In this document: in pieces, positions 2 to 36,399 of the stretch | Position numbering within the stretch: position 1 is the first letter of the stretch | Layout: every line of letters starts with the position of its first letter | From: Methanobacteriota archaeon | Lineage (GTDB): Archaea; Halobacteriota; Methanosarcinia; Methanosarcinales; Methanogasteraceae | Length of the DNA: 36,399 nt | Assembly: GCA_034659035.1 (NCBI GenBank) | Contig: JAYEGI010000159.1 | Span: forward strand, 1 to 36,399 | Direction of reading: 5' to 3' | Notes under the pieces: generated by a model | The model's input: only the letters and a program-made list of their open reading frames with translations | Database searches by the model: none | What the model was told of the DNA's origin: nothing | Position numbers and translations under genes: made by a program

Positions 2-345
2 GTTACAATCTCTGTTGTTGGGTCGGTTATGGGGAAACGGACGCTCGGACTATATCTTGCAACCATCGCAGGGACGGGCAATTGTACTTAGGCGTGCTTC
101 TGGATCTGATTTACAACATTACTGACATACCTATCCCGGGATTGGACGGATCCATATCAATACTGCCGGAGTGGGCATACATTGCAGCATCGATTCTTTT
201 TGCGCTCCTGATGGTAATCGTGTTCGCACGAAAGTACGTGGCACACCGTTCCGGAGCCGATGTGGACGGTGCTTCTGAGTCCGCGGCGTGTGGCTGCGGG
301 TTATGCGGGGATATAGACAAAGAAAACCGAAATTATAGGTTTTAA
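2..345 (+). pseudogene. 3' part of a predicted permease (ArsP/DUF318, SO_0444-like metal transporter), cut by the window edge, with apparent frameshifts near 77-90
   Basis: Frame 2 reads VTISVVGSVMGKRTLGLYLATIAGT. Removing one base near 77 and one near 90 joins it to AIVLGVLLDLIY, two hydrophobic segments and a CGCGLC tail. Family call is from remembered motif similarity. The frameshifts could be sequencing errors. Confidence 0.5.
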
Positions 346-389
346 GGTCAAAGCCTAACTTTTTTAGGGGATTTTACTTATACACCTAA
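335..389 (+). promoter_or_regulatory. Operator/promoter array ATAGG-N14-CCTAA-N5-TTAGG-N16-CCTAA upstream of the His-rich ORF
   Basis: ATAGG 335-339, CCTAA 354-358, TTAGG 364-368, CCTAA 385-389. The N16 spacer contains AT-rich TTTTACTTATA. Mirror image of the five minus-strand copies. Confidence 0.8.
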
Positions 390-418
390 CAACTAACGAG
401 ATGGGCGGAGGTAAAAAT

Positions 419-595
419 ATGGCAGAAGTACAGGAACTCGTAAAGCATGTGAACGAAGACGTGAAGCATGTTCACGACGATATCGAACACGTGCAAAGGG
501 ATATAGAAGAGGTAAGTGCGCATCTGAAAAATCTTGATGAGCACATGCATAACCTGATGGAACATACGGAAACAATGCAAAAAGAGATTTCGTAA
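419..595 (+). CDS. Small His/Glu/Asp-rich heptad-repeat (coiled-coil) protein, 58 aa, putative metal-binding
   Basis: GGAGG at 407-411 precedes ATG 419. Heptads KHVNEDV/KHVHDDI/EHVQRDI/EEVSAHL/KNLDEHM; 8 His. Has its own operator upstream and a terminator-like hairpin downstream. Confidence 0.75.
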   Translation: MAEVQELVKHVNEDVKHVHDDIEHVQRDIEEVSAHLKNLDEHMHNLMEHTETMQKEIS

Positions 596-627
596 GGTTT
601 GAGTTTTCGTAACCATCTCTTCTTTTG

Positions 628-670
628 GATGCAGGGGATTGTTTCAAGCTTTCCTGCATCTTTTTATTTT
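628..670 (+). terminator. Hairpin plus T-tract between convergent genes
   Basis: GATGCAGG (628-635) pairs with CCTGCATC (653-660), followed by TTTTTATTTT. Confidence 0.55.
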
Positions 671-792
671 AGATCGCACTTTCTCGAGGGTCCATCAGTG
701 AGAATGGTCTGGCTTTGAGCATACTCCTCTTATCATCATTCCATAACCACCCCCCTCGCTCTGAAATGCAGGCAAACCTGTAGCAGCTTTAA

Positions 793-2712: not shown

Positions 2713-3852
2713 TCATCGTCTGCTCCTGTTAGCGATTCTGATTCTCCCTCGCATAAATCCGATACTGGTCATGAGCAGGATGAAGAGAAATCCCGGGATC
2801 ATATCGCTCACCGGAAATCCCTTGATCGATATATCCATCTCGCTTACGGGCAGATACGCGGGGACGAGCAGGATCGAGAGGAAATAGAGAAGCCCGAAGA
2901 ATATCATCATGCTTCCCAGATTCGAGGGCTTCTTGCTGAACCGGGTTCTTCGTAAAACCGTGGTTATCACGATAATCGTCGAAAAGAACACACCCCCAAC
3001 TAGTAAACCAGTTTTGAGAGCACTCATACCCGCGATCATAAGAAATGCACAGGTCAGAAAGATCGTTGCAAGCGATACAGGACATGGTAGCGCCATCAAG
3101 AGAAACGTTCTCCTACTGACATCTTTTTTTGTCTGGTTCCACTTCCTGACAGTGTAGAATCCAACAACAAGGAGCGATATCGCTATCGTCAGTTGAAACA
3201 CCCCGAATGCAAGCCCCATCCCAAAGAGGGTGCTTATCGATTCGTAAAGTGCATCACCAGCAACACTGATCACTGCACACATCAGAAACGGAACAACAAG
3301 GTAGACCGATGCGACTGCGAGAATCTCACGTGTATTCAGTCTGGAAAATCCCATCCCAAACGCTGCCTTGCTTGAGAACTTGAGCATACCGACGAATATC
3401 CCGAAGATCATAATGCCGCTTATGAGTGACTTCTCCTTGCACTCCCGTATCTTCGCATCGATCCACGAGTCGTCATAATCCAAATTGTTCTTTCTGTAGC
3501 CATCTCTTGCGAGTTCGTAGTATCTAAGAGCGGTATCACACTCTTTCTGTCCGGTGCAACAGTCACCTGCAAGACGGTAGCTTGAAGCAGCGGATATATG
3601 GTCCCCCGCCAACTCGAAATTTTCGGCTGCAAGAACGTAATGCATTGACGCATTCGTAAGGTCACTTGCGTCTCTGTAGCGCAGGGCAATTCTCCCATAC
3701 AAGACGCCTGCACCATCATAATTTTCCAATTCCGATAACTGTTCGGCATATCCGATGAGTTCCCCTGTGTCGGCATCCGCCTGATCCGCCTGACCGCTTG
3801 CAATCGCCATCGATGAGACGAGCAGGAGTAGTATGCATATTATCCTCTTTAT
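2713..3852 (-). CDS. DUF2162-like (HmuT-like) multi-pass membrane protein with an N-terminal signal peptide and TPR/alpha-SNAP-like helical domain
   Basis: C-terminal ~230 aa has about seven TM segments with K..FG.G and ALPCPV motifs and lies before MotA+DUF2149. N-terminal part has Ala/Tyr helical repeats. Start uncertain: ORF track gives 3909, but the signal peptide begins at ATA 3852 (IKRIICILLLL). Confidence 0.7.
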   Translation of the reverse strand: MKRIICILLLLVSSMAIASGQADQADADTGELIGYAEQLSELENYDGAGVLYGRIALRYRDASDLTNASMHYVLAAENFELAGDHISAASSYRLAGDCCTGQKECDTALRYYELARDGYRKNNLDYDDSWIDAKIRECKEKSLISGIMIFGIFVGMLKFSSKAAFGMGFSRLNTREILAVASVYLVVPFLMCAVISVAGDALYESISTLFGMGLAFGVFQLTIAISLLVVGFYTVRKWNQTKKDVSRRTFLLMALPCPVSLATIFLTCAFLMIAGMSALKTGLLVGGVFFSTIIVITTVLRRTRFSKKPSNLGSMMIFFGLLYFLSILLVPAYLPVSEMDISIKGFPVSDMIPGFLFILLMTSIGFMRGRIRIANRSRR

Positions 3853-3856
3853 CTCA

Positions 3857-5779
3857 TCACTTCCTTCTCGAATATCCGAATATTGTAAACACCAATAACC
3901 CCACCACAATCAGTGTCGCCATCATTGGCGTAGCCTTGATCGATGGAATCTCGATTCCCGAATCGAACCTCTTGATCGTCTTCACCTTCCCGGCCACCTT
4001 CTTCCCGCGAACCATCTCGCCCTTCTCCGAAGTATCCGCATAATTCGAGGCGGTCTCGTAGGTGTTGTTGGAACCGGCGATCTCGGAAAGCCCCTTCTTC
4101 ACATACACATCCTCTGCATCATTGCCTGTGACGGTATTCCCAACAAGCGTGGTGTCGTGCGCCTCGGTTGAGATGCGGATTCCGTTGGCAACAGAGGCAT
4201 CATCATTGTATGTGGAACCTTCTTTGTTCTCTGATGCGTTATTGTACCGGAGCGTGTTGCCGGGACCTCCCACGTAGATTCCGGGACCTTTGTTGTTGTT
4301 TACGATGTTGTTCTCGATAGCAAAGAAACTTGAGAGCTTGCACCGCAGAACGATTCCACCCGCCCCGTTTTCAGTCACCCTGTTGCCGGTTATGTTGTTG
4401 TACTTCGGCTTCATCTTCGTGTATATCCCGGCTTTTGTATTACCATAAACCGTGTTATTTGAGAGCGTGTTGTACTCTCCACCGTAGATAAAAATCCCAT
4501 TCCCCCCGTTCTCACAGCTCGTGCCCCTGCCTTTGTTGTGATGCACGAGATTGTTGCTGATCGTGCTCTCGTACACATACTGCATCTTGATGCCGTGAGT
4601 CGTCGTATCATCGATGTCGTTGCCGTTGTGATGCACGTTGCAATAATCGATCGTATTGTTCTTGACGATATCTCCTTTGATGTCATTTCCCCTGAGGTGA
4701 ATCCCATTGCAGAAGTTTTTGATCTCCAAATCTTTTATAACCAGATCATCGTGTCCTGAATTAAAGATTCCCGCACGCTCGGTCTCACTATCAGTGCAAT
4801 CTCCGGAAATCACGCCGTCCAGCGTGTATCCATTGCCATCGATCACGACACCATCCGCACCGATCACGAGACCGTGTCCTGACATGCAGTTAAGATCATA
4901 GTTAAAGGTGTAGCTCTCAGTAACGATATCGCCACACGCAAATATCATTCCGGGATCGCTCAGAGCTACGCACCCGCAGGTGGGGCTGCCGCGTTCTGTT
5001 TCATCCAGCACCCCGTCACTGGATTGCGTCCCTGATGCGGGGCAGGGATGCGTGCAGGGACAGCCACCGCCGCTGGAATCGGAATCGAGATTAGAATCGT
5101 TGTAGCCCTGCGCAATCGCACAGGAATTGTCACTGCCTGTGTTGCCTGTCCCTGATTCCACCACGATGTCGCCGCGTCGATTGTTGCAGACCGTGTTTCC
5201 GTGGAGAATATTTTCGCTTGAGTTGTCTATGTTTACCCCCATGCCGTTTACCGTCGTTATGCTGTTGTATCCGAGCATGTTTCCATTTGCAGCGTTTGAG
5301 AGAAGGATTCCGTGTCCACCATCGCCATAACCGACGGTATTTCCTGTTATGTTGGTGTGTGTCGAAGAAAATAGCCAGATGCCGCTTCCTTGCGTGTAAT
5401 CGATGATATTATCCCTGATCTCTCCGTTTTTGGCGTCTTTGAAATATATTCCGGAGCAGAACCCGCTTATCGTGAGGTTCATTATCATCACCCTGTCGCA
5501 TCCATCGTTGTGGATGCCTTCCCCGTCGTCGCCATGCTCATTGATTGTGATACTGTGTCCTGCGCCATCTACCGTGATCCCGTCCGCACCGATCGCGAGA
5601 CCGTATTGTTCCTGGCAGATCATGTCTTCGTTGAATATGCAGCTTTCAATCACGGTGTCGCCGCATCCGTAGTCTGTTCCTGTGACAACGCCGATGCAGC
5701 CTGCATGCGCGTTTCCGGCCAGAAAGAGCAGTAGCAGCACCGCAGACATCCGCATCCAGCCATTCATTCTTCGTTCCAT
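3857..5779 (-). CDS. Secreted Cys-rich right-handed parallel beta-helix protein (two beta-helix units, NosD/PbH1-like) with a C-terminal TM anchor
   Basis: Signal peptide ending GNAHA; GI.L/N.I..N repeats; CGD.V.ES..FN.D..C caps; ends LIVVGLLVFTIFGYSRRK. Start placed at ATG 5779 after a GGAGGGGAG RBS. Confidence 0.85.
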   Translation of the reverse strand: MERRMNGWMRMSAVLLLLFLAGNAHAGCIGVVTGTDYGCGDTVIESCIFNEDMICQEQYGLAIGADGITVDGAGHSITINEHGDDGEGIHNDGCDRVMIMNLTISGFCSGIYFKDAKNGEIRDNIIDYTQGSGIWLFSSTHTNITGNTVGYGDGGHGILLSNAANGNMLGYNSITTVNGMGVNIDNSSENILHGNTVCNNRRGDIVVESGTGNTGSDNSCAIAQGYNDSNLDSDSSGGGCPCTHPCPASGTQSSDGVLDETERGSPTCGCVALSDPGMIFACGDIVTESYTFNYDLNCMSGHGLVIGADGVVIDGNGYTLDGVISGDCTDSETERAGIFNSGHDDLVIKDLEIKNFCNGIHLRGNDIKGDIVKNNTIDYCNVHHNGNDIDDTTTHGIKMQYVYESTISNNLVHHNKGRGTSCENGGNGIFIYGGEYNTLSNNTVYGNTKAGIYTKMKPKYNNITGNRVTENGAGGIVLRCKLSSFFAIENNIVNNNKGPGIYVGGPGNTLRYNNASENKEGSTYNDDASVANGIRISTEAHDTTLVGNTVTGNDAEDVYVKKGLSEIAGSNNTYETASNYADTSEKGEMVRGKKVAGKVKTIKRFDSGIEIPSIKATPMMATLIVVGLLVFTIFGYSRRK

Positions 5780-5790
5780 CTCCCCTCCAT

Positions 5791-6681
5791 TCACCCTCCG
5801 AAACTCCCGACCCGCTCTGCAGACGCCATCTCGATGAACCAATCCCACCCCTCCCACACCATCCCGCTCTCCATCACCTCATCAGGCACCGGAACATCAG
5901 GGATCACCGGCACAAAACCCGCGTTCTGGGAAAATGACCTCTGCATACCGGGAGAAATCAGATAATCAGCCACCTTCTTCACGTCTTCGCCATACCCTTT
6001 CTTCAGCAGCATCACCTGCGGGAGTGCGAGCGCACCCTCTTCCGGCAGGCAGAAGGAAGTATTTGCCCCCCTCGAAAACTTTGCAAACGCGAGTGGCATG
6101 ATGCCGATCTCGTACTCGCCATCACCCACCGCACGATTGACATCTACAGGAGCGCCTTTGTATGAAACATCGTCCGCAACAAACTCCCTCCCCTGCTCGC
6201 CATGGCGATGGCTGAAGAAATTTCGAAACAGGATCGCTGGCGGCGTAGTCTTGCCTGTGCAGAGCACTTTGCCCCTGAACCGCTCATCAAGGAGCGACCT
6301 CCACGAGTCAGGAGGGTTCTCCACGTCTTTGTTATGGAATATGAGAAGCGGCATGACAAATACCGGTTTTAAGACCCACTCGCAATCAACAAAGCCTCCT
6401 GATTCAACAAAACTACCTGTGTCATACCTGTAATCCGTATCAAAGTAACCGGTCTCCACCAGATAATCCCGCTCTCTCATGATCTCCGGGCGGGTGACGA
6501 TGAGAAGATCAGGTATCCTATCCACGTTACCAGCCATTATCTCTTTCAGCATGCCATAATCATCTGCACGATGCCCTTTGGACGGGATTATCACCTCGGA
6601 ATCGGGACAACGTCTCTTTATATCAGTCGTCACATTCCTGCTAATATTTACAGGAACTGAAACATATATTCTACTGCACAT
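5791..6681 (-). CDS. ABC-type solute-binding-fold protein (AfuA/PotD-like) lacking an evident signal peptide
   Basis: PPDSWRSLLDERFRGKV, AVGDGEYEIGI, PEEGALALP and DYLISPGMQ are typical of class II SBPs. Start ATG 6681 follows GGAGGT. Confidence 0.75.
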   Translation of the reverse strand: MCSRIYVSVPVNISRNVTTDIKRRCPDSEVIIPSKGHRADDYGMLKEIMAGNVDRIPDLLIVTRPEIMRERDYLVETGYFDTDYRYDTGSFVESGGFVDCEWVLKPVFVMPLLIFHNKDVENPPDSWRSLLDERFRGKVLCTGKTTPPAILFRNFFSHRHGEQGREFVADDVSYKGAPVDVNRAVGDGEYEIGIMPLAFAKFSRGANTSFCLPEEGALALPQVMLLKKGYGEDVKKVADYLISPGMQRSFSQNAGFVPVIPDVPVPDEVMESGMVWEGWDWFIEMASAERVGSFGG

Positions 6682-7486
6682 AGTTACCTCCTGATAACTC
6701 CTTAAGTATAAGTGCTCTATCCGCACCCCAATCCGTATCATCCAGCACCCTCCCCCCTCTTAACTCCTGCCTCATGTCCACAAGGAACCTGTCAATACAA
6801 ACAAGAAACCTTAGTTGCTCCCTCTCGGTGCCGTTGGGTCGGATGAGTTTTAACATCGACCCGTTCTTCATTATCAGTCTCTTCTGTGCGGTAAGCATGA
6901 TTGTTGGATCGTGTGTTGCAATAAGAACCATCTTCCCCTCGGTTGCGAGCAGTTTTATCCCTCTCGTCTTGTCGATGCCCGCATTCTCGATCTCGTCTAT
7001 CAGAACGACAGGCGCATCGCTTATGAGTGCTGCATCGGCTATCATCAATGCTCTCGACTGCCCGCCGCTGAGCGAAGAGAGATGAGTATCCATCGAGATA
7101 GGCTCTCCTGCAAGCTCGTTTGTAAGCGCTATCACCTTTCGCCCGATCTCACCGTCTCTTATCATTAGCCCTCTGCTATTCGCATGGAGATTTACAAAGT
7201 CCCCAACATTCAGGTCCATCACAAAGTGCATATTCTGCGAGAGACTCGCGGTTATCCGGGTGCTGAATGGGTCTGCCACCGCACCATCAACGAGCACCTT
7301 TCTTCCGGACTGCGAGTCTCCGTTTGCAAGCTGCTCGATGTCAGAGAGGAGAAGACTCTTCCCGGAACCTGTGGGACCAGCTATCGCCATGACATCGCCC
7401 CTTCGGATCACCACCTCCTCTATTCCTTCCGGTTCCCCGTTTTTACCAGTTCCTGATAATATTCTCAGTTCATTGATGCCCATCAT
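6671..7486 (-). CDS. ABC-family ATPase
   Basis: Walker A GPTGSGKS, signature LSGGQ, Walker B VLIDEIE, H-loop ATHD. RBS GAGGTGA before ATG 7486. Confidence 0.9.
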   Translation of the reverse strand: MMGINELRILSGTGKNGEPEGIEEVVIRRGDVMAIAGPTGSGKSLLLSDIEQLANGDSQSGRKVLVDGAVADPFSTRITASLSQNMHFVMDLNVGDFVNLHANSRGLMIRDGEIGRKVIALTNELAGEPISMDTHLSSLSGGQSRALMIADAALISDAPVVLIDEIENAGIDKTRGIKLLATEGKMVLIATHDPTIMLTAQKRLIMKNGSMLKLIRPNGTEREQLRFLVCIDRFLVDMRQELRGGRVLDDTDWGADRALILKELSGGNYVQ

Positions 7487-7499
7487 GCCTGATATCACC

Positions 7500-9209: not shown

Positions 9210-9264
9210 TTAGGTATACAATAACCCTGTCCTAAAAAAATTAGGTTTTGAGGGAAAAACCGAA
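9210..9264 (-). promoter_or_regulatory. Operator/promoter array upstream of the Trx-GTPase-ATPase-SBP-beta-helix-DUF2162-MotA-DUF2149 unit
   Basis: TTAGG(9210-9214)-N16-CCTAA(9231-9235)-N5-TTAGG(9241-9245)-N14-CCGAA(9260-9264). Confidence 0.85.
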
Positions 9265-21251: not shown

Positions 21252-21277
21252 CCCCTAAAAAAATAAAGAGAGGAAGT

Positions 21278-22288: not shown

Positions 22289-22327
22289 TCTATTTACCTC
22301 CTTCTGTCTTTATTCCAGTATATTCTA

Positions 22328-25631: not shown

Positions 25632-25677
25632 AAATAAAAGATGAGGTGATGATGAACACCACCTTCTGTCTCTCCTA

Positions 25678-26724: not shown

Positions 26725-26750
26725 AGCACTAAAAATAAAAAAAAAAGAGG

Positions 26751-29700
26751 TTAAGGCTTGATCTCCAAGCCAGCCTCATACCTCGCTATGTACACTGCAT
26801 CCATCAGGTCCACAATGCCGTCACCCTCCGGGTCTCCGGATGTGCCTACAACATCTCCAACCAGTACCATTTCAGCCGGCGGACTTGAGCATTCCGGTTC
26901 AAGACCTGCCAAATATCTGGCTATGTACATCACATCATTGCCGTCGATAATATTATCCCTGTGCACGTCACCCCTCCTGAGGACGGTCAGTTCGATGGCA
27001 ACCGTGTTGTTATAGTTCCCTTCGTTATCGGTTGCATTGATGGTCAACTGATGGGTGAGATTGACGCCATCCGTTGCATTCGTGGTCACTGTCCAGACAT
27101 CGGTTCCGGTAATGCGCTCCATCGGCTGGACAGGAGATCCACCTATTGATGATAGATCGATGGTGACATTTGCAACTTCGCCCTCTTCATCGGTCACCGT
27201 GACATCCAGCACAGTCACATTCGTTCCAGGCGCTCTTGGTCTGTCGTTGCCGTTTAATATCGCATCCCTGCTTGCCGATGCATCCGTAACCAGTGGCGGT
27301 TCGGTGTCTGCTCCTATGGTGAACGTTCCATCGATCACCGTGTGTGTGACTTTGTCATAACCCACATCAAACAGATCCTTAACTGTGATATCCAACAGAC
27401 TCGCATCACCCTTACTGCCCATAGCAGTGAGATTGACATAAGCAAAGACCACGTCTCCGTCCAATCCTGATGCGTTGATCGCATTTGCATACATCCAGCC
27501 AGAACCATTGTCGAAGGTAGATACAAGCAAATCCAAATCTCCTGGCGTAACGTCAGTCACATGAACGACTGATTCGTTGTAGGTCATATTGAGCTCGCAG
27601 CCACCCAGATTCGTCACGTAATTGACCATGATCGGCACGACGATGCTCTCTCCTAGCGATACGGTGACATCTTCGATGGATACGGTTGTCGAACCCGGCA
27701 CCACAGTCCCAGTCGTGAAGTTGCATGTGAATAGCTCTGCCAGTTGATTGCCTGCAAGATCCTTTGCACCGGTGCTGATGGTTACATCGTATGTGGTGTT
27801 ATCAGCAAGGTCGGCACCAGGCGTGAAGGTCATGATATTCCCGCTCCAGCTGAATGCTCCATCCACATCCGGCGTGATCGAGAATGCGCCTTCTGCCGAG
27901 GTCTGATTCATCGCCTCATCGAATGTTACGGTTACGTCAGTGGCTACTGGAACATCGGTTCCGGTAGGTAAATTGCCGATGACCGTTGGTGGTGTGGTGT
28001 CTGCTGCGCCATCCGTTACATTGACAACTCCATTCTTCGTCACCATATCCACGGGCTGTGGTGGTGTGTCATTTGTATATGCCTCAGCCTCCAGGGCAAG
28101 TACGTAGCTATCGCCAGTGTCACCACCGACCACATCGAATGTTACGATAAACAACTCGCCATCGCCATTGATCGCTTCAAGTGTTATACAACTGATGTTT
28201 ACATCCACATAGCCGGCATGGTACGCCACGAGTGGTGCAGATAGGCTCCCTATCATCGATCCATTCGCAACATCTGTTGCATTCAGGATGCTTGCATTGT
28301 AGGCCACTCTGATATCCATGGCACATATAGCCAATGCGTCCGTGATATTGATCGATACATTCACAGTATCCCCAACGCTGCCCTCTGCACTTCCGATACT
28401 CACCGTGGGCATTTCTGTTGCAGCGATGACCTCGATGGTGTTCGTATCATTATACGGTGACAACCCTGATGTTGAATTGTTCAGGGACACGTTTACGATG
28501 TAGGTTCCGGCAGGGGTTCTGATGGTAGTGTTCCACCACTTCGGAGCCGGATTCGTTGCAGTTCCGCTGCCAATATTCTCGATCAATGCACCTGTAGCAT
28601 CCTCGATGCGGATCTCATAATCCACATCCTCCGAGAAGAGACAATCGACCGATACGTTGGTGCCCCGTACGACCGGTGGAGTCGGAGTTATCACGCAGGA
28701 GACAAGTTCCGGCGGGTTTACCGATTCTGCTGCTGCTGTCATGAAGCTATGCTCCTCGCTCTCGTTCGAATTACCGCTTGCATCAGTACTGTTCACCACG
28801 AAGTAGTAGCTCGTATCCGAACTCAATCCGGTCAGCGTGACGCTGTGTGCGGTCACCATCGTTGCATTGGTTTCACTTTTCGTGTAAGTGCCGGATGTAT
28901 TGCCATACTTGACCAGACTGTCGCTTGCTTCATCAGTACCCCATGTGATAATCACCGAACTATCTGTTGGTGTGCCGTTTGCGACATTGGTGATCACAGG
29001 CGGATCGATGTCAGCAGTACTCGATGTCGTGAAACTGTGTTCAACACTCTCGTTTGGATTGTCACTGGCATCAGTGCTGTTCACCACAAAGTAATATGTA
29101 GTACCTTCAATTAGCCCGGAAAGATCAATGCTGTGCGAGGTGGTCATCACCACATCAGATATATCATCCGTATAAACACCGGATATGGTGCCATACTTGA
29201 CCAGACTGTCACTTGCTTCGTCAGTGGTCCATGTGATAGTCACCGAACTATTTGCTGGTGTGCCGTTTGCGACATCCGTGATGACAGGTGGTGTAGTGTC
29301 TGGCTCGGCAGTTTCAAGAGTGATGTTACACTCAAAACCACCAGCAACCACTTCAGCCTGAGTGACGGTGTGTGATGTGGTGTTCGACTGCGAGCACCCT
29401 GCGACATCGAACCGCAGGATATCGTCTGCAATGGCATCAGCGCAGCTTGCAAGTGTGAGCTGGTAGTAGTTCGAGCTTTCAGCCACAACAGCCGCCCAGT
29501 CCCCGCATGTATTCAGGTTTGTTACGGTGACCGCCGGATTGGTGCATGCGATTTCGTCTTCATTGAAAACATATCCACTGATCGTGAAAGGGGTCAACGG
29601 CTTGCCGATCCCAACACGTCCATCGCAGATAGCAACATTTTTAATTTTGTTGCCGTCGGGATCGCTCAACAGGACATGCTCGAAGTGAAGTTCACTGATA

Positions 29701-30083
29701 CCGGTGCTTATCGCCTCAAACCGGATCGTCGTCAGCACACCGGGGTCAGTTACACCACCGTCTGTTCTGTATTCGCCATAATCGAGACTGCCATTGGGAT
29801 TATCGGTAATGTTCGCCATTTCCATGCCGCCGAGAAACGTCCCCTTGTTTTGGCATATTGCACTCGATACGGCATTGTTGAAGTGAATAATGTAGTCAAT
29901 ACCCGCTACCTCAGTACCATCCGGGTCCACTGTTATGTTTAGTGTGAATGTATCTCCGGGTGATACGCTCTGGTACGACGGTTCGACACATATCGTCGGT
30001 GCAGCAGAAGCTGCCTGTATTGTTGCAATTATTATGCATAGTGCAATAATTGTGCCTGTTGAATGTAGTCTTTTCAATTCCAT
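26751..30083 (-). CDS. Large scaffoldin: cohesin, X, two FN3-like, Ig-like, cohesin, Ig-like (SbsA/Big-type), cohesin, 'Y' module, dockerin
   Basis: Three cohesin-like modules; tandem ITW.TDEASDSLVKYG...YYFVVNSTDAS repeats; V.VTFDEAMN Ig module; dockerin GDVHRDNIIDGNDVMYIARY / GDGIVDLMDAVYIARY. Start 30083 follows GGAGG. Confidence 0.88.
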   Translation of the reverse strand: MELKRLHSTGTIIALCIIIATIQAASAAPTICVEPSYQSVSPGDTFTLNITVDPDGTEVAGIDYIIHFNNAVSSAICQNKGTFLGGMEMANITDNPNGSLDYGEYRTDGGVTDPGVLTTIRFEAISTGISELHFEHVLLSDPDGNKIKNVAICDGRVGIGKPLTPFTISGYVFNEDEIACTNPAVTVTNLNTCGDWAAVVAESSNYYQLTLASCADAIADDILRFDVAGCSQSNTTSHTVTQAEVVAGGFECNITLETAEPDTTPPVITDVANGTPANSSVTITWTTDEASDSLVKYGTISGVYTDDISDVVMTTSHSIDLSGLIEGTTYYFVVNSTDASDNPNESVEHSFTTSSTADIDPPVITNVANGTPTDSSVIITWGTDEASDSLVKYGNTSGTYTKSETNATMVTAHSVTLTGLSSDTSYYFVVNSTDASGNSNESEEHSFMTAAAESVNPPELVSCVITPTPPVVRGTNVSVDCLFSEDVDYEIRIEDATGALIENIGSGTATNPAPKWWNTTIRTPAGTYIVNVSLNNSTSGLSPYNDTNTIEVIAATEMPTVSIGSAEGSVGDTVNVSINITDALAICAMDIRVAYNASILNATDVANGSMIGSLSAPLVAYHAGYVDVNISCITLEAINGDGELFIVTFDVVGGDTGDSYVLALEAEAYTNDTPPQPVDMVTKNGVVNVTDGAADTTPPTVIGNLPTGTDVPVATDVTVTFDEAMNQTSAEGAFSITPDVDGAFSWSGNIMTFTPGADLADNTTYDVTISTGAKDLAGNQLAELFTCNFTTGTVVPGSTTVSIEDVTVSLGESIVVPIMVNYVTNLGGCELNMTYNESVVHVTDVTPGDLDLLVSTFDNGSGWMYANAINASGLDGDVVFAYVNLTAMGSKGDASLLDITVKDLFDVGYDKVTHTVIDGTFTIGADTEPPLVTDASASRDAILNGNDRPRAPGTNVTVLDVTVTDEEGEVANVTIDLSSIGGSPVQPMERITGTDVWTVTTNATDGVNLTHQLTINATDNEGNYNNTVAIELTVLRRGDVHRDNIIDGNDVMYIARYLAGLEPECSSPPAEMVLVGDVVGTSGDPEGDGIVDLMDAVYIARYEAGLEIKP

Positions 30084-30270
30084 AATTATACCTCCCATTT
30101 ATTCTTGAGTTGTTCTCTACTTGAAATACCAAACTACGGGAAAAGTCCCGAGATTGTCTTGCCACAAACGCGTTGGTACACGGCTCTGGCAGCTGTTGTC
30201 AGGGTTAGTAATGTTTCATTGATCACCCCCAGTAAATTTATTTTATTCATAGTATAATGCATATTACATG

Positions 30271-31245
30271 CTATGAAATGTCTATATTATTAGCTGCCGC
30301 TTGCAGGATAATGAGGGCGTCGAGCGATGTTACGCTACCGTCACCGTTGACGTCAGCAATCTTGTTATTGTCTCCACAAACTGCCATCTGCAGTACAATC
30401 GCAGCGTCAGCGGACGTGATTTTACCATCGCCATTAACATCACCCGGTGGACAAAACTCAGGCGTGATGTCATGCTCAAAGCCGCCAGCAGTTACATCAT
30501 CACGGGTAACGGTGTACTCTGTGACAATGCACCCATCCGGACTTGTGGCATTAAACCGGAGCGTATCGTTTGCAATGACGTCACCGCAGCTTGCAAGCAC
30601 GAGCCGGTAGTAGTTTGAACTTTCAGCCGTAACATCCACCCATTCCATGCACGTATTCAGGTTTGTTATTGTAACCGCCGGATTGTTGCATACACTTTCG
30701 TCCTCATTAAAGACGTGTCCACAGATCATAAACGAGGATGGCGGCTGGTCAATCCCAACACGTCCATTGCAGATAGCAACGCCTCGAATCCTGGAACCAT
30801 CGGGATCGCTCAACAGGACATGCTCGAAGTGAAATTCACTGATACCTGTGCTTATAGCCTCAAACTCTATCGTCGTCAGCACACCCGGATCAGTTACACC
30901 ACTGCTGTCTTTTCTATATTCGCCGTAATCTACACTGCCATTGAGATTATCGGTAATGTTCACCATTATATCGCCGCCAAGAAACTGTCCTTTATTTTGA
31001 CTTAGTACATTCAACACAGCATTATCAAAACGAAGGATGTAATCAACACCGGCTATCTCAGTACCGTCCGGATCTACCACTATGTTCACCGTGAACGTAT
31101 CCCCTTGTGAGACACTTAGATAGGGCGGTTCAACATTTATTGTTAGTCCTGTCTGTGATCCAGTCGATGTCGTAGCTGCAAATCCAATTTGCACAGAAAC
31201 GATTATACCTACAGTAGCAATCGCTACTATCAAAGCTTTATTCAT
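30271..31245 (-). CDS. Cohesin + X module + dockerin adaptor
   Basis: Class-A cohesin; dockerin GDVNGDGKITSADAAIVLQ / ADVNGDGSVTSLDALIILQ. Start is 31245 or 31257. Confidence 0.88.
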   Translation of the reverse strand: MNKALIVAIATVGIIVSVQIGFAATTSTGSQTGLTINVEPPYLSVSQGDTFTVNIVVDPDGTEIAGVDYILRFDNAVLNVLSQNKGQFLGGDIMVNITDNLNGSVDYGEYRKDSSGVTDPGVLTTIEFEAISTGISEFHFEHVLLSDPDGSRIRGVAICNGRVGIDQPPSSFMICGHVFNEDESVCNNPAVTITNLNTCMEWVDVTAESSNYYRLVLASCGDVIANDTLRFNATSPDGCIVTEYTVTRDDVTAGGFEHDITPEFCPPGDVNGDGKITSADAAIVLQMAVCGDNNKIADVNGDGSVTSLDALIILQAAANNIDIS

Positions 31246-31247
31246 TT

Positions 31248-32051
31248 TTACTTCCACCTTTTTTCTTTTAATATTAGATGTGCTATCATAACCAATCCGG
31301 TTATTGCAAACGAAGCTCCAAATCCGGGAAGTTTATTACTCTTCTCTTCTGACTGGGACGTTGAAGCTCCTGGATTCTGTGATGTAGCCGTGGTTGGAGA
31401 TGCCGACGGCAAAGAGGTTGCCGTTAGAGTTGGCGTTGATGTCAGACCTGCTGTTTGAGTTGGCAAAGGAGTAGAAGTTGGAATCGGATTTTGGGTATGC
31501 GATGCAGATCGCCGCCCATTGTCGCCACTACCTCCCGAAGTTTGAGTGGGCGTAGCTGTGGGTGTTTGTCCTGCAGATTCTATATTGCAGGTTCCATCAT
31601 TGACCCAAACGCCTGAAATCTCGATCGCACCGGGATCGCTTAATATAGCCGACTCGAAGTGAAGTTCACTGATACCGGTGCTTATCGCCTCAAACTCTAT
31701 CGTCGTCAGCACACCAGAGTCAGTCGCACTACCTATTTTCCATTCGCCGTAATCGAGACTGCCATTGGAATTATAAATATCGTTTGCCACTATATTACCG
31801 CCGAGGAACGGTCCTTGACTTTGACTTAGTGCCTTCAACACAGCATTATCAAAATAGAGGATGTAACCACCACCAGCTATCTCAGCACCGTCCGGATCCA
31901 CCGTTATATTCACCGTAAAGGACTCTCCAGGTGAAACTGTTAAGTAGGATGGTTCGACGCTTATTGTTGGCTCTGCAGAGCACATTTGTACGGATGAAAT
32001 AAAAAACATGCTTAATAGAGTGATCACAATAACTAACAGGGCTTTATTCAT
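31248..32051 (-). CDS. Anchoring scaffoldin: cohesin + Ser/Thr/Pro linker + PGF-CTERM
   Basis: Class-A cohesin; tail LPGFGASFAITGLVMIAHLILKEKRWK. Confidence 0.88.
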   Translation of the reverse strand: MNKALLVIVITLLSMFFISSVQMCSAEPTISVEPSYLTVSPGESFTVNITVDPDGAEIAGGGYILYFDNAVLKALSQSQGPFLGGNIVANDIYNSNGSLDYGEWKIGSATDSGVLTTIEFEAISTGISELHFESAILSDPGAIEISGVWVNDGTCNIESAGQTPTATPTQTSGGSGDNGRRSASHTQNPIPTSTPLPTQTAGLTSTPTLTATSLPSASPTTATSQNPGASTSQSEEKSNKLPGFGASFAITGLVMIAHLILKEKRWK

Positions 32052-33109
32052 CTTCTATTCCCCCTCCTTGTTATGAAGCTGTATGATATTGCAAGCAATC
32101 CCGTCACTGCAAGTGCCGCTTCAAATCCGGGCAAGTTTCGTTTTCCTTCTGGTGGGTTTCCTTCTGGTGGGTTTCCTTCTGGTGGGTTTCCTTCTGGTGT
32201 AGGCGAGGTAGTAGAAGCTGGTGGGGATGGTGCGGGAGTTGCTGTTATCGCAGGCGTGGGTGCAATCCGTGTAGATACCGGAAAACTGATCCTCCATTCC
32301 ACCATTCCACCAAGCATATTGTAAACGTCTTTAAAGCCATTTTGGACAAGTGTGTCACTTGCGGTTCTACTATCAGCGCCATCTCCAGAGTAGACGATGA
32401 CTTTTTTGGACTTGTCCAGTTCACCAAGCCTGCTTTCCAGCTCAGCTATAGGTATATGTTTGAGTAAAACACCCTGCACCTGTATGTGTTCGGCATCGTG
32501 TTCCTCCTTTGCCCTGACATCCAGAAGAGTGATCTCTTCCGGATTTTCTTCCATCATCGTATATGCTTCTTCGACTGTGACATCCGCGACAGGCTCACCT
32601 GTAGCAGTTCCTATGGTGCATCTCCCGCCATCGATCTCAGCTCCAATATTCTTGCCATTCCGATCGACTAAGATCACGTCACTCAACTTTAAATCGCACA
32701 TTGCAGACTCTTCGACCACCTCAAAGCTGATTGACGCCAGAATTCCCGAAGTGGTTACGCCATGCTCCAGACCTTCATCTGTCCTGATTTCACCATACTC
32801 GATCTTACCAGCGGTGTTATCGATTATATTCGCTATCTCGAGTGTTCCTATGCCGTCCTGACTGAGGAAAGTTCCCTGAGATTGCGAAGTGGCATTCAGG
32901 ATGCGCTGATCGAAATACAGAACATATTGAGCTGCACAGATCTCATTGCCCCCCGGATCTACGTTTATGGTTACCGTAACTGTCTGTCCGTATGACGCTT
33001 CTATGCTTAGTGGTGACACGCTCACAACCGCTGGTTCGGCTTGCACGATCACGGCTGCTGTGCTGATGATTAATACAATATATACAAAACCTATCGATAT
33101 TCTCTTCAT
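32048..33109 (-). CDS. Anchoring scaffoldin: cohesin + rhodanese-like domain (catalytic Cys replaced by Ser) + PGF-CTERM
   Basis: LLDVRAKEEH...HIP...VIVYSGDGADS...GFKDVYNMLGGMVEW rhodanese pattern; LPGFEAALAVTGLLAI tail. Start is 33109 or 33133. Confidence 0.85.
   Translation of the reverse strand: MKRISIGFVYIVLIISTAAVIVQAEPAVVSVSPLSIEASYGQTVTVTINVDPGGNEICAAQYVLYFDQRILNATSQSQGTFLSQDGIGTLEIANIIDNTAGKIEYGEIRTDEGLEHGVTTSGILASISFEVVEESAMCDLKLSDVILVDRNGKNIGAEIDGGRCTIGTATGEPVADVTVEEAYTMMEENPEEITLLDVRAKEEHDAEHIQVQGVLLKHIPIAELESRLGELDKSKKVIVYSGDGADSRTASDTLVQNGFKDVYNMLGGMVEWRISFPVSTRIAPTPAITATPAPSPPASTTSPTPEGNPPEGNPPEGNPPEGKRNLPGFEAALAVTGLLAISYSFITRRGNRR
32142..32199. repeat. 15-bp tandem repeat (about 3.9 copies) encoding a (PEGNP)n linker
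   Basis: TTTCCTTCTGGTGGG repeated perfectly. Confidence 0.95.
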
Positions 33110-33126
33110 TTTCCCAGGTTTATCTC

Positions 33127-34083
33127 CTACCATGCAGTTTTCCTCCAGTTCGCTCCTATGATCACGGCGTCAAGGATGTTTATATCACAATCGTTGTTCA
33201 GGTCTGCTCTGTCTGCTCCCTCATCATCCCAGACATAGTCGCCACATCCACCGCATGTCGCTCTCCAGTACTTCCCTGCAATGACCGCATCAAGGATATT
33301 GACTTCGCCGTCTCCGTTCACATCACCTGCGATATAAACGTTGACCGGCATGAGAGTCGAGTTTGGGAGATCTCCATTGTCATTCACTGTCAAGCAGACC
33401 GTGAAATGTTCATAACCTGCCCCATTCCATGGACTGCTCGAATAAACATGCTCAACCGTCTCACCTGTTCCGTTCTCCCCATCACCAAAGTTCCATCCAT
33501 AGTTTATGACGCTCCCATCGGTGCTTGGGTCGTAGGATGCGGAGCCATTAAAGATCGCCCTGCCGAGGTCGCCTATGTTGTTATAGCGATGCAGAGATCG
33601 CGGGACGGCAACAGGGGGACGATTCAGAACCGCTGTGCCACTATCCACCGTTGACGGTATGGTGGTTTCAGTCGCGCTTGCTTCTTTTAACTCATTGACA
33701 GTCAGGTTAAGCGTGCTTGTTTCGCAAGCGTCGCCGACTGCTTCTATTAGAAGGTCTGCAAGTTTAACATCACCACTTAATCCATCGCCGTAATCCACAC
33801 CTCCAACCTTCACAAGACCGATTGTGTTATTGATCACCGGATAGAGATTACCAAAATCACTGTTATTGACGGCAGTAATATAAACTACGGAAGGATCGTA
33901 ATCAATATTGATGTTAGCAACCCCGAGATTGCTCACGTTATTGATTACGACCGAGATGGTGGCATCATCGCCTGGTTCAAAGAAGACATTACTTACTGAA
34001 ACGGTGGTTGCGGCAGAGACTGGCACGATTAGCAATGCCAGAAGCAGCACAACGGACACCGTTATCGAACTTTTCACATTCAT
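33127..34083 (-). CDS. Cohesin + PKD + dockerin adaptor
   Basis: FNGSASYDP...YGWNFGDG...H.Y PKD motif; dockerin GDVNGDGEVNILDAV / ADLNNDCDINILDAV. Confidence 0.88.
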   Translation of the reverse strand: MNVKSSITVSVVLLLALLIVPVSAATTVSVSNVFFEPGDDATISVVINNVSNLGVANINIDYDPSVVYITAVNNSDFGNLYPVINNTIGLVKVGGVDYGDGLSGDVKLADLLIEAVGDACETSTLNLTVNELKEASATETTIPSTVDSGTAVLNRPPVAVPRSLHRYNNIGDLGRAIFNGSASYDPSTDGSVINYGWNFGDGENGTGETVEHVYSSSPWNGAGYEHFTVCLTVNDNGDLPNSTLMPVNVYIAGDVNGDGEVNILDAVIAGKYWRATCGGCGDYVWDDEGADRADLNNDCDINILDAVIIGANWRKTAW

Positions 34084-34103
34084 ATATCATCACCTCTTTT
34101 ATC

Positions 34104-36107
34104 TCAGTGAAGCACCTCAAATCCAGATTCGCCCATCACATACTTGGCAAGATACATCGCATCATAGAGCGTCACCTTCCCATTTCCACTCACTTCGCCG
34201 ATCCCTGCACTCATCGCCTCAAATCCGGGTTTTCCAAAGAGATGCTTGCCAAGATACATCGAATCATAAAGTGCTACTTCACAGTTCTCGCTCACATCTC
34301 CGTTTAATATGACCTTTAATTGTACACTTATCGATCTGTTCACGTTTCCAAAGACATCGGTTGCACACACGGTCAGGTTGTGCGGCAGGTAACTTTCATT
34401 GTGGCAGATCGTAGTCCCGACAGGCGCATTAGTAGCCGCAGTCCACACATCAGTGCCCGGAACACGAGTCATGGGCTGATCGGGTAGACCGCCGATTGTG
34501 GTAAGATTGATTGTTACGTTAACAACTTCGCTTTCATCTATCACGGTAGCATTCAGTCGGGATGTTTCTCCCCATCTCGGGTCAAAATCCGTATCTTCGG
34601 GAATGGACACAGGAGATGCTATCTGGTGTATCACTGAAGGTGGGGTTAGTTCTGTTACGACAAATGTCCCATTGAGTGAAACTGTCGGTATGGATATCTC
34701 GCCGGGTCCTGCTTCCTTTAATTCAGTGATGGTCAGGTTCAGGGCACAGGTGTCCCCCATATTGCTTATCGATTGTAAGGTGACATCCGCAAGTTTCACC
34801 TCGCCGCTTTGTCCTGGCGAAGATATCTGGTATACACCGATCCGTGTCACGCCTGACGAATTATCGATGGTTGAGACCGCGAAATCAAAATCGCTGTTGT
34901 CAACGCAGGTGACGTGAACCACCGATTGATTGTAGCTGAGAAAGATGTCCGCGGTTCCGACATTGGTGATATTGTGAATCATGATAGAGGTGGTAGCGTT
35001 CTCCCCTGCTATCAGAGTAACATCGCCGATGCCGATGATTATCACCGGATGAGTAGTGAAGTTGTGTCCTGCACTCTGTACGGAATTGCTGCTTGGGTCT
35101 GTGCTATTTACAACGTAGTAATAGGTGGTGTTCGGGAGCAGTTCGACAAGAACGATGCTGTGATCGATCACATACGATGCATTGTGCGCCACCTTTGTGT
35201 AATTGCCCGCCTGTGTGCCATACCTGACCAGACTATCACCGGGTTCGCTGGTCTCCCATGATATGATTGCGGAATCCTTTGTTATCGATGTAACACCTAT
35301 GTTGGCAATCACGGGAGCTGTTATATCTATGGTTATATTCTGCACAAATCCGACTGCATCCATCTCTGCTTGCGTTACTCTGTGTTCAAGCCCGGTGAAA
35401 TTACCTGTGCGGTCGCTGGCGTTGAAATGAAGTATGTTCCCCAATCCGATATGGGCGAAGTTTGTAGAGAGGAGGTAGTAGTTGGAGCTTTCGTTTGTCT
35501 CGGCAATGAAGACTTCGCTGGTGTTCAGATTCGTTATCGTCACATTGGGATTGTTCACAGGTATACCATCGCTATAATCAACAAAACCAGAGATATCGAG
35601 CTGGGTTCCATTAATTTTTACTGTGCCATCATTGACCAGAACACCCGGGATTCTTACGCCAAGCGGATCGCTTATTATAATATTGGTCAGGGATAAATTG
35701 GCGGTTCCCGGTTCTATCGCCTTAAACGTGATCGTTGCAAGAACACCTGGATCGAGTGCACCGTTTTCCACGCCCATTCGCATTTCACCATATCCAACCA
35801 GTCCGAGGGTGTTGTTGATCTCGTTTGTTATTATCATGGTTGATGCGCCGTCATGGCTCAGGAATGTACCGCTGACCTGATCGGTTGCGTTTAACAGCAT
35901 GTTACTAAAGTACAGGTCATATTGTGCACCCATCACCTCGTCGCCTGCCGGGTCCACCGTTATATTCACGGTGAATAGGTCCCCTTGCAAAACATTCTGG
36001 TTAGAAGGTTCAACGTTTATCACCGATGCTGCATAAGCCGACAGGGGGATAAGCGCGATTATAAATAAGATCGATACAAGCGCCGATCTTTTTATCTTTA
36101 TTTTCAT
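34104..36107 (-). CDS. Scaffoldin: cohesin, X, FN3-like, cohesin, 'Y' module, dockerin
   Basis: Same modules as 26751..30083; dockerin GDVSENCEVALYDSMYLGKH / GEVSGNGKVTLYDAMYLAKY. Confidence 0.88.
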   Translation of the reverse strand: MKIKIKRSALVSILFIIALIPLSAYAASVINVEPSNQNVLQGDLFTVNITVDPAGDEVMGAQYDLYFSNMLLNATDQVSGTFLSHDGASTMIITNEINNTLGLVGYGEMRMGVENGALDPGVLATITFKAIEPGTANLSLTNIIISDPLGVRIPGVLVNDGTVKINGTQLDISGFVDYSDGIPVNNPNVTITNLNTSEVFIAETNESSNYYLLSTNFAHIGLGNILHFNASDRTGNFTGLEHRVTQAEMDAVGFVQNITIDITAPVIANIGVTSITKDSAIISWETSEPGDSLVRYGTQAGNYTKVAHNASYVIDHSIVLVELLPNTTYYYVVNSTDPSSNSVQSAGHNFTTHPVIIIGIGDVTLIAGENATTSIMIHNITNVGTADIFLSYNQSVVHVTCVDNSDFDFAVSTIDNSSGVTRIGVYQISSPGQSGEVKLADVTLQSISNMGDTCALNLTITELKEAGPGEISIPTVSLNGTFVVTELTPPSVIHQIASPVSIPEDTDFDPRWGETSRLNATVIDESEVVNVTINLTTIGGLPDQPMTRVPGTDVWTAATNAPVGTTICHNESYLPHNLTVCATDVFGNVNRSISVQLKVILNGDVSENCEVALYDSMYLGKHLFGKPGFEAMSAGIGEVSGNGKVTLYDAMYLAKYVMGESGFEVLH

Positions 36108-36152
36108 TTTGAATATCGCCTCTTTTGTATCCGGAGAATGAAAGATAGATTG

Positions 36153-36217
36153 TTAGGTGGATAAATATCATACCCTAAAAAAATTCGGGCTTGCTGACAA
36201 AACCTAATGATATTCGG
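36153..36217 (-). promoter_or_regulatory. Operator/promoter array upstream of the scaffoldin operon
   Basis: TTAGG(36153-36157)-N16-CCTAA(36174-36178)-N5-TTCGG(36184-36188)-N14-CCTAA(36203-36207)-N5-TTCGG(36213-36217). Confidence 0.85.
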
Positions 36218-36222
36218 TTTTT

Positions 36223-36399
36223 CTACCATGCCACGTGTCTCCAGTTCGCTCCTATGATCACGGCATCGAGAATGTTTATCTCGCAGTCGTTGTTCAGGTC
36301 GGTCCCATCTTTCTGCTCGTCATCCCAGAGATGACCCTCACAGTCACCACATCCGCAGTAATCAGTAAGATTGTCCGGATCATCAGGATACGGGTTGCA
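36223..36399 (-). CDS. 3' end of a dockerin-bearing protein, cut by the window edge and absent from the ORF track
   Basis: My translation: CNPYPDDPDNLTDYCGCGDCEGHLWDDEQKDGTDLNNDCEINILDAVIIGANWRHVAW*, closely similar to the C-terminus of 33127..34083. Confidence 0.9.
   Translation of the reverse strand, partial: CNPYPDDPDNLTDYCGCGDCEGHLWDDEQKDGTDLNNDCEINILDAVIIGANWRHVAW

Follow-up and report, generated by a model that had tools for sequence, protein, structure and literature searches.

A predicted iron-type regulon joins a cohesin-dockerin surface scaffold to ExbB-like motor genes in a methane-cycling archaeon

We analysed a stretch of 36.4 kb of archaeal DNA (the window), which is the entire contig C159 of a draft genome of 2.41 Mb in 293 contigs, 85% complete (G000; other G numbers denote relatives and C numbers contigs). 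The window carries genes for cohesin and dockerin proteins, beta-helix surface proteins and two pairs of MotA/ExbB and DUF2149 proteins, and its units share one composite operator, which in congeners also precedes the iron uptake genes feoAB in an operon ending in a DtxR-family repressor gene. On balance, we favour the view that an iron-starvation regulon has its largest block in the window and would build an anchored cohesin scaffold for capture proteins together with ion-driven motors serving membrane-tethered partners. Within this reading, we are highly confident of one shared regulator and think it probable that iron is the signal; that iron is extracted from a complexed form is put forward with less than even confidence.

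The operator first surfaced in a repeat search as a shared element of 42 nucleotides (nt; family D12). The complete composite operator is about 55 nt long and reads, in the direction of transcription, TTAGG-N-TTTT-N5-AAAACCTAA, about 5 T-rich bases, and then TTAGGG-N14-ACCTAA(C). It consists of two palindromes, and the centre of the second resembles an archaeal TATA box. The core TAGGG-N14-ACCTA, with at most one mismatch, gave 7 matches in the window, where 0.78 were expected; none of 100 shuffles reached that count. Six of the seven matches are full composite sites, each aimed at the next gene. Site A (365-389, weight-matrix score 67.3) lies on the plus strand before the His-rich peptide gene, which is the sole plus-strand member of the set, nearly all window genes being carried on the minus strand. 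The other sites are on the minus strand: site B (1210-1234, score 35.4) precedes the YbaN gene, site C (9211-9235) a gene for a protein of 249 amino acids (aa) that heads the NosD/DUF2162/MotA/DUF2149 unit, site D (19672-19696) the gene for a 447-aa beta-helix protein that heads the second motor unit, site E (24745-24769, with a partial tandem copy at 24806) the gene for a 729-aa beta-helix protein, and site F (36153-36177) the first cohesin gene. A reading of the window from its letters and open reading frames (ORFs), hereafter the sequence-only reading, had placed the same operator before every transcription unit. The units do share one operator, but no site was present in the 172-nt gap before 30098 or in the 202-nt gap before 8195; the genes at these two positions may be internal to operons.

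A 64-nt weight matrix found 17 sites in the genome at 35-78 bits, 6 of them in the window, and the next best match scored 20. When 92 distinct sites, taken from this genome and from loci retrieved from relatives, were compared, the information content lay on the half-sites and the centres varied, which is the pattern of a binding site and unlike that of a copied promoter. The two other DUF2149 loci in the genome, one of which also has DUF2162 and MotA, lacked the operator, as did the genome's CobN fragments and 5 other cohesin contigs. The core was present in all 27 genomes of the family, in 1-16 copies each, as compared to 0-3 for the reversed control. Beyond the family, the motif was enriched only in one genus of a second family, with two further families at control level; the operator motif was found conserved in three families.

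The content of the regulon in relatives pointed to iron. In a congener with a 94% complete genome (G004), the operator precedes feoA-feoB(N)-feoB(C), a triple-FeoA gene, a DUF3793 gene and a YbaN-like gene, and also two CobN-like genes with a small dockerin protein and a DUF2162-MotA-DUF2149 triad. In congeners, feoA-feoA-feoB stands behind the operator in an operon ending in a DtxR-family repressor gene, and the last gene of this feo operon in G008 and G003 encodes a 152-aa protein with Fe_dep_repress and Fe_dep_repr_C domains. feoAB was found behind the operator in G004, G008, G003, G048 and G052, and YbaN orthologues in G004, G006 and G052. A DtxR-type gene occurs in 26 of the 26 other genomes of the family; in at least 10 of them its distance from the operator is about 3.3 kb, in the downstream direction on the same strand and contig, and for the remaining 16 the list of matches or the contigs are too short to show this distance. 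Outside the family, a lone operator was seen before feoAB (G048) and another before CbiX-FmdE with DUF2325 and triple-FeoA genes nearby (G029).

Within this genome, the operator on contig C273 precedes the gene of a secreted protein (963 aa) that combines FmdE with two CbiX stretches and a dockerin (Dockerin_1 above the cut-off), and other sites precede a second CbiX-FmdE gene, a DUF3793 gene and beta-helix paralogues at contig ends. On the same contig (C273, 15770-19400), it stands before a PadR-MFS-methyltransferase unit and before the gene of an 88-aa zinc-ribbon protein. The S-adenosylmethionine-type methyltransferase was behind the operator in 8 loci and the zinc-ribbon protein was conserved in 4. 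PadR was considered as a general regulator and rejected, as PadR-MFS lies behind the operator only in G000 and G008, and elsewhere the methyltransferase gene comes directly. On contig C25 (793-2789) the operator is followed by a triple-FeoA gene and then by a DUF2325 gene, with orthologues in 10 loci; in two further families, too, triple-FeoA and DUF2325 genes were at or adjoining an operator site. Besides a helical N-domain and a long coiled coil, the DUF2325 protein has a C-domain in which Cys and His are invariant, and it is a candidate iron or iron-sulfur (FeS) sensor that could partner the short DtxR protein. Its structure model had a predicted local distance difference test (pLDDT) score of 72.7, and a Foldseek search against the PDB returned generic flavodoxin-like or CheY-like matches to the C-domain, none at E<=0.001. 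In G008 (contig C91), a 555-aa ORF that weakly matches a DDE transposase lies about 700 nt past the operator and may be an insertion into a regulated unit.

Judging from these loci, the ancestral core of the regulon looks like feoAB, FeoA, DUF2325, CbiX-FmdE, DUF3793 and YbaN; scaffold, beta-helix proteins and motors look like additions made by the present family. The sequence-only reading had linked the locus to scavenging of a metal or tetrapyrrole (iron/haem, cobamide or F430). The link was upheld by the regulon content (feoAB with DtxR, triple-FeoA, CobN-like and CbiX-FmdE genes), with iron now favoured over cobamide or F430.

The DtxR consensus is given as TTAGGTTAG(G/C)CTAACCTAA in PMC1382209, and its outer pentamers TTAGG/CCTAA match the operator half-sites. 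The likeness to DtxR/IdeR systems comprises the shared outer half-sites, a DtxR-family gene in the operator-controlled feo operon and iron uptake genes in the regulon. In contrast, the operator described here has four half-sites with N14 and N16 spacing, wrapped round an archaeal TATA-like box; the repressor is of 152-158 aa and lacks the SH3-like third domain, and separate triple-FeoA proteins are present in the regulon.

The gene order of the window recurs in relatives. Contig C53 of G023, which belongs to another genus, repeats it in full: cohesin genes, operator, beta-helix with dockerin, beta-helix, giant beta-helix, MotA b, DUF2149 b, DUF11, operator, 249-aa protein, NosD, TPR-DUF2162, MotA a, DUF2149 a and operator, with the operators at places matching those in the window. 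Parts of this order recur in G019, G020, G003, G006 and G009. The TPR-DUF2162 orthologues were 78-85% identical in G019, G023, G020, G006, G003 and G009, and fragments in G011 were 92-95% identical, three genera being covered. Cohesin genes lie immediately upstream of the beta-helix/NosD/motor block in G003 and G009, and dockerin-bearing beta-helix genes take their place upstream of the motor block in G006; the contigs of G019, G020 and G011 are too short to show cohesin linkage. The sequence-only reading had joined scaffold and motor units in one system, and in relatives the two were not found unlinked; rather, their linkage recurs across three genera.

Its gene inventory (cohesins, dockerins, beta-helix proteins, MotA/DUF2149, DUF2162, G3E, ABC, solute-binding protein (SBP), YbaN and the His-rich peptide) was likewise borne out by Pfam and profile searches, domain calls being Pfam profile matches on the window proteins, against family cut-offs where these are given. 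Seven cohesin-bearing genes lie at 25678-36107 (minus strand, as are all genes below unless marked otherwise), recognised by Pfam Cohesin, Dockerin_1 and PGF-CTERM matches and by a profile built from the window's own proteins. Pfam Cohesin exceeded its cut-off in 9 stretches of 6 window proteins. The iterated own profile raised this to 13 cohesins, in agreement with the count of about 13 claimed earlier: 11 full modules in 7 proteins, one 53-residue fragment at 25443-25631 and one weak match (E 1.5e-4), to the cohesin-like N-domain of a 336-aa secreted protein within 20646-24517. Five of the seven cohesin genes (348, 1115, 328, 318 and 667 aa) also bear dockerins. Dockerin_1 was above the Pfam cut-off in 3 window proteins, and the own profile supported dockerins in 6. 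Among these 6 are the 1115-aa protein, at its C-terminus, and a further gene that runs off the contig, its 3' end (36223-36399; repeat family D9) lying in the window. Of the 8 dockerins first counted, these 6 are therefore supported by profile, and the other 2, at the C-termini of the 729-aa and 201-aa proteins, were seen by motif only. These two C-termini had no Pfam match at E<=0.05, and hhalign gave dockerin probabilities of 24% (729-aa protein) and 6% (201-aa protein), duplicated GDV(N/D)...D segments being visible. The beta-helix orthologues in G019 and G023, positional homologues of the 729-aa protein, have a C-terminal segment 57-63% identical to a window dockerin, and the G004 counterpart of the 201-aa protein has Dockerin_1 above the cut-off. 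Genome-wide, about 40 ORFs had Dockerin_1 above the cut-off (55 matches at E<=0.01), and there were 19 cohesin matches.

PGF-CTERM anchors had also been claimed, and two cohesin proteins, at 31248-32051 and 32048-33133, carry one above the Pfam cut-off; a third was weak (E 0.086) and a fourth, at the end of 18169-19512, was recognised by eye. The protein at 32048-33133 also has a rhodanese-like domain, the active-site loop of which reads Y-S-G-D-G. The serine occupies what we take to be the position of the catalytic cysteine, and the reading of this domain as an active sulfurtransferase was dropped on that account. The stretch 24948-25677 is, as read from its sequence, what remains of a decayed cohesin gene: the cohesin fragment at 25443-25631 (62 aa) lies in it, the DNA of this fragment is 83% identical to 26051-26127, and a 98-aa ORF (24948-25244), in a frame different from that of the fragment, has a Pro/Thr-rich linker with a hydrophobic anchor-like tail at its end.

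Genomes of anaerobic methanotrophic archaea (ANME) are reported to encode scaffoldin-like proteins carrying as many as 5 cohesins, and binding proteins for metal uptake that bear dockerins (Chadwick et al. 2022, PMC9012536). As in cellulosomes and in these ANME systems, the window encodes anchoring proteins, adaptors with several cohesins and a dockerin, and dockerin cargo. Unlike in cellulosomes, the anchor here is a cohesin with PGF-CTERM instead of SLH or sortase, and there are no glycoside hydrolases, the cargo being beta-helix and CbiX-FmdE proteins. A further difference from both is that the subset in the window is under one iron-type operator and is linked to MotA/DUF2149, neither of which points is mentioned in the available portion of PMC9012536.

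The putative motors form two modules. In module a, the MotA/ExbB-family channel protein (1768-2352; 39.9 bits against a cut-off of 22.9; orthologues 83-93% identical) is encoded next to a DUF2149 protein (1403-1771; Pfam 97 bits) with one transmembrane (TM) helix and a beta-rich outer domain, and a TPR and DUF2162 multi-pass membrane protein is encoded at 2713-3909 (Pfam 134 bits; hydropathy). In module b, MotA_ExbB (11532-12257; PF01618, 38.6 bits against 22.9) is paired with DUF2149 b (11200-11535; Pfam), and the orthologues of the pair in G019, G023 and G020 were 74-78% identical. DUF2149 has one hydrophobic segment, with Asp33 at the start of the TM helix invariant in 16 of 16 sequences; presumably this residue recalls the essential aspartate of ExbD (Asp25), TolR and MotB. 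A MotA_ExbB protein beside a small single-pass protein with an invariant aspartate at the TM start resembles ExbB-ExbD, TolQ-TolR and MotA-MotB, and in congeners the MotA/DUF2149 pair is co-regulated with iron uptake genes. The setting differs from these stators in that the archaeal host has no outer membrane, no TonB-like or TolA-like protein was recognised, DUF2149 has no detectable sequence similarity to ExbD/TolR, and the partners are DUF2162, NosD-like, DUF11 or CobN-like proteins. Between the TPR-DUF2162 and MotA a genes lies a 120-aa ORF (2354-2716) that belongs to no family found, is without a TM segment and was unmatched by tblastn in relatives. The gap at this position is only 16 nt in G003, and the ORF is probably a non-coding spacer.

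In all three genomes of another family that were examined, DUF2162-MotA-DUF2149 lies beside CobN-like proteins of 1543-2006 aa. These proteins and the 1552-aa one of G004 have a signal-like N-terminus and a C-terminal TM segment by simple hydropathy (4/4); a 1429-aa CobN-like ORF of G004, which starts without an intact N-terminus, was left out of this count. Since an extracytoplasmic protein of a chelatase family would be without ATP, the adjoining stator is a plausible source of its energy. No CobN domain was found in the window by Pfam, and the CobN fragments of this genome are on other contigs without the operator; in the window, NosD-like and DUF11/CARDB proteins with the same type of tether occupy CobN's place. 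The iron-induced hmu operon of Bacteroidota encodes a CobN-like haem de-chelatase, HmuS, along with MotA and DUF2149 (PMC10434189, PMC12583661), and many archaeal homologues of HmuS are described as unexplained in the latter source. Similarly, in the archaeal order the MotA/DUF2149 pair with DUF2162 adjoins secreted, anchored CobN-like proteins. The window differs from hmu in having no HmuY hemophore or TonB-dependent receptor among its proteins (Pfam), and in that a NosD-like beta-helix protein replaces CobN. DUF2162 had no match in Bacteroides thetaiotaomicron in a control search.

Four beta-helix proteins, one with a dockerin, had been described in the window. Four NosD/Beta_helix proteins (666, 1972, 447 and 729 aa) are indeed present, but the dockerin lacks statistical support. 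The NosD-like double beta-helix protein of 666 aa (3857-5857) has a signal-like N-terminus and a C-terminal TM anchor (Pfam, hydropathy), and the 1972-aa protein (12254-18172) has 7 CARDB domains, a beta-helix and a C-terminal TM segment (Pfam, hydropathy). The 447-aa protein (18169-19512; Pfam), with a PGF-like anchor assigned by eye, had no useful PDB match by sequence. The 729-aa protein (22328-24517) combines a beta-helix (Pfam) and CARDB with the dockerin-like C-terminus mentioned above, and the 201-aa protein, also dockerin-like at its C-terminus, is encoded at 20646-21251. A 632-aa DUF11/CARDB surface protein with a C-terminal TM anchor (9302-11200) comes directly after DUF2149 b. The 249-aa protein (8398-9147), the first gene after site C, is secreted and has a CGWC motif and a PGF-CTERM-like anchor; its orthologues in G023 and G020 were 76-80% identical, and a thioredoxin/glutaredoxin-like match (score 0.89) is taken as a lead only. 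The four beta-helix genes, like the cohesin genes, are paralogous and contain long DNA repeats (repeat search).

The beta-helix paralogues share a leader (TTGCRCGRGATTCAC...GTCTCG) about 15 nt past the operator, in 5' regions of 150-230 nt. It is located at 24518-24744 and 19513-19671 in the window, and also on C66, C184 and G006:C83, and has no Rfam match; it could be an RNA element or reflect mere shared ancestry. Such a conserved leader past the operator is confined to the beta-helix paralogues. At 19938-20300 there is a 120-aa ORF in which the first 70 residues or so are like the N-terminus of the 201-aa protein and the sequence thereafter is unrelated; it is probably a frameshifted paralogue of that protein. 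A hairpin followed by a T-run at 19953-19924 is terminator-like and fits the end of a unit. On contig C115 (1-8400) a fourth DUF2149 gene at the contig start is followed by a 508-aa DUF11 protein, the same order as DUF2149 b-DUF11 in the window; the contig also encodes a 2034-aa protein with 8 CARDB domains and DUF3344 and two short CobN-like fragments, and has no operator.

NosDFY resembles the window in that a NosD-family, periplasm-type beta-helix protein adjoins an ABC-type ATPase. It differs in that the NosD subfamily model TIGR04247 gave 57.5 bits against a cut-off of 300, no NosY, NosZ or NosL was seen in the window, and the ATPase is not adjacent to the NosD-like gene in relatives. This ATPase (ABC_tran, no permease; 6671-7516; Pfam) belongs to a trio at 5791-8195 with an SBP_bac_6-like protein (5791-6741; Pfam) and a cobW-type G3E GTPase (7500-8195; PF02492, 46.2 bits against 20.7). 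The trio was missing from 6 of 6 related loci, and no hydrophobic N-terminus was seen in the SBP-like protein. The G3E and ABC genes of the trio share 44-52% identity with a G3E-ABC cassette present elsewhere in the order; such a paralogous G3E-ABC(-SBP) cassette is kept in 30 of 61 genomes of the order, with the SBP-like gene included in two genomes of another family. The G3E protein was closest to HypB and UreG, with equivalog models far below their cut-offs and weak structure matches (PDB sequence search); matches of the SBP-like protein in the PDB were weak only. The trio is probably a cytoplasmic, lineage-specific insertion and not core to the system. The inclusion of SBP, ABC and G3E proteins in the system, as proposed earlier, was not supported, given their absence from all six loci and the missing hydrophobic N-terminus.

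The remaining genes and scans of the window are as follows. The His-rich, coiled-coil-like peptide of 64 aa with 8 His is encoded on the plus strand at 401-595, Pfam returning coiled-coil-type noise only, and the YbaN/DUF454 inner-membrane protein (Pfam 132 bits) at 793-1191, behind site B. An Rfam scan of the window at gathering scores gave 0 matches and a tRNA scan gave 0, and scans for sigma-70 promoters and intrinsic terminators gave counts at or below shuffle level. McrA was found in 17 of 27 genomes of this archaeal family, which is uncultured, including all three high-quality ones, and was not found in this genome (85% complete).

From the domains, the operator and its conservation, the synteny and the regulon content, we infer the following course of events. 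The small DtxR-family repressor encoded at the end of the congeners' operator-controlled feo operon most likely binds the operator. When Fe(II) is plentiful, this repressor would block the promoter, and when iron is scarce all units would be transcribed. The two PGF-CTERM-anchored cohesin proteins would hold the cohesin-dockerin adaptors, and these in turn the dockerin cargo, namely the beta-helix proteins of the window and the CbiX-FmdE proteins encoded elsewhere. The NosD-like, giant CARDB/beta-helix and DUF11 proteins would be membrane-tethered beside the two MotA/ExbB and DUF2149 units, which are predicted to be ion-driven stators as in ExbB-ExbD, one of them paired with the TPR-DUF2162 membrane protein. 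Outside the cell, where ATP is absent, energy would come from the motors and may serve to strip or pass on bound iron, be it aqueous or mineral FeS or a metallated tetrapyrrole. Iron would then enter via Feo or DUF2162. In its boldest form, which we regard as speculative and rather unlikely to hold in full, the system would be to archaea what TonB-dependent uptake is to bacteria: ion-motive force would be passed by MotA/DUF2149, together with DUF2162, to tethered NosD-like, CobN-like and CbiX-like proteins, which would pull iron from FeS clusters or minerals or from metallated tetrapyrroles, the capture proteins being placed in this family on a DtxR-controlled scaffold.

Several points weigh against an iron-starvation regulon of this kind. 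feoAB and a DtxR gene were not found in this genome, which is 85% complete; since feoB and the DtxR gene adjoin in relatives, the loss of a single contig would account for both. An HD-domain protein (C95) and a winged helix-turn-helix (wHTH) protein (C72), weak Fe_dep_repress matches, were rejected as not DtxR-like. The half-site spacing of the operator (N14, N16) is unlike the 19-bp DtxR box, DtxR-family proteins can sense Mn as well, and the iron response is read from the genes that stand behind the operator. On the scaffold side, the dockerins of the window's own two cargo proteins (729 aa and 201 aa) lack profile support, the rhodanese-like domain of 32048-33133 appears inactive, and the beta-helix proteins seem to be without a known ligand and, by sequence, without a PDB relative. 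As regards the motors, DUF2149 had no ExbD/TolR sequence match in the PDB (E<=0.1) and its model, with pLDDT 53, was too poor for structural comparison; MotA a had no PDB match at E<=0.1, and module b is without DUF2162.

Two other readings accept the shared operator and differ on what it serves. The cell surface could be remodelled under iron stress, the adhesin-like beta-helix, CARDB and cohesin proteins attaching the cell to iron minerals, partner bacteria or an electron acceptor, and MotA/DUF2149 powering the export, anchoring or movement of giant surface proteins. The GldLM/PorLM motors of Bacteroidota are the model for such a role. We consider this unlikely. In its favour, all three MotA/DUF2149 modules with visible neighbours adjoin very large, anchored, repeat-rich proteins (1972, 632 and 2034 aa), and dockerins (about 40 ORFs) and cohesins (19 matches) abound in the genome. 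Roles in cell-cell contact were proposed by Chadwick et al. (PMC9012536), and the use of pyrite by methanogens is reported to need direct contact (PMC9124975). However, in G004 and in other families the same motor triad adjoins CobN-like proteins, an enzyme family and not adhesins, the conserved core of the regulon is of uptake type (feoAB, FeoA, CbiX-FmdE), and no components of a secretion system were seen among the Pfam matches of the window. Alternatively, the locus could salvage tetrapyrroles, cobalt or nickel (cobamide, F430 or their precursors), with CbiX, CobN and G3E proteins handling Co/Ni and the regulator sensing that metal. The CbiX and CobN families are named for chelation of Co, Ni and Mg, the operator stands on CbiX-FmdE-dockerin and CobN-like genes, G3E is closest to the Ni chaperones HypB and UreG, and there is the His-rich peptide. 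Nevertheless, we hold salvage of this kind to be quite improbable, as in congeners feoAB and a DtxR-family gene are under the operator, none of the operator sites examined had a Ni or Co transporter behind it, and the G3E-ABC-SBP trio is lineage-specific and absent from the 6 related loci. Moreover HmuS, the one function-tested CobN-like relative beside MotA/DUF2149, takes iron from haem (PMC12583661).

There may also be no common system at all, the motif being a promoter copied along with duplicated surface genes and the neighbourhood a chance cluster of abundant paralogues. The beta-helix and cohesin genes are paralogous, with long DNA repeats, and only the beta-helix paralogues have a conserved leader after the operator. 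Against this, unrelated genes stand behind the motif (His-peptide, YbaN, cohesins, thioredoxin-like, FeoA, CbiX, DUF3793, methyltransferase and feoAB), the palindromic half-sites are kept while the centre varies, the motif is conserved in three families, and it is missing from the other cohesin and MotA loci of the genome. This explanation is largely refuted by the conservation, half-site pattern and selectivity of the operator, and we give it hardly any credence. The probability left over is reserved for explanations not listed here.

Each component of the locus belongs to a known kind; what is new is that they are combined in an archaeon under a single iron-type operator. The literature searched held nothing on the operator, the DtxR link or DUF2162 nor, judging by titles and listings, on archaeal DUF2149, on DUF2325 or DUF3793 in this setting, or on a CobN-ExbB link in methanogens, the supplementary tables of PMC9012536, which may list these proteins, lying outside that search. 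The locus points to an undescribed way of gathering iron in a methane-cycling archaeon. How methanogens and methane-oxidising archaea acquire iron in sulfidic sediments is an open question, and FeS species are said to be taken up by 'as-yet-unidentified transporters' in pyrite-grown methanogens (PMC8516115). Three puzzles, namely archaeal iron uptake, the dozens of cohesin and dockerin genes and the many CobN/HmuS homologues, are tied by this locus to one operator with a named candidate regulator and a named signal, which leaves a few genes and one DNA site open to direct testing. Work outside the membrane, if the motors do power it, would be an unreported role for ExbB-like stators in cells without an outer membrane. 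Should the comparison with TonB-dependent uptake also prove true, it would put a name to the transporter-side machinery described as unidentified in work on the iron nutrition of methanogens.

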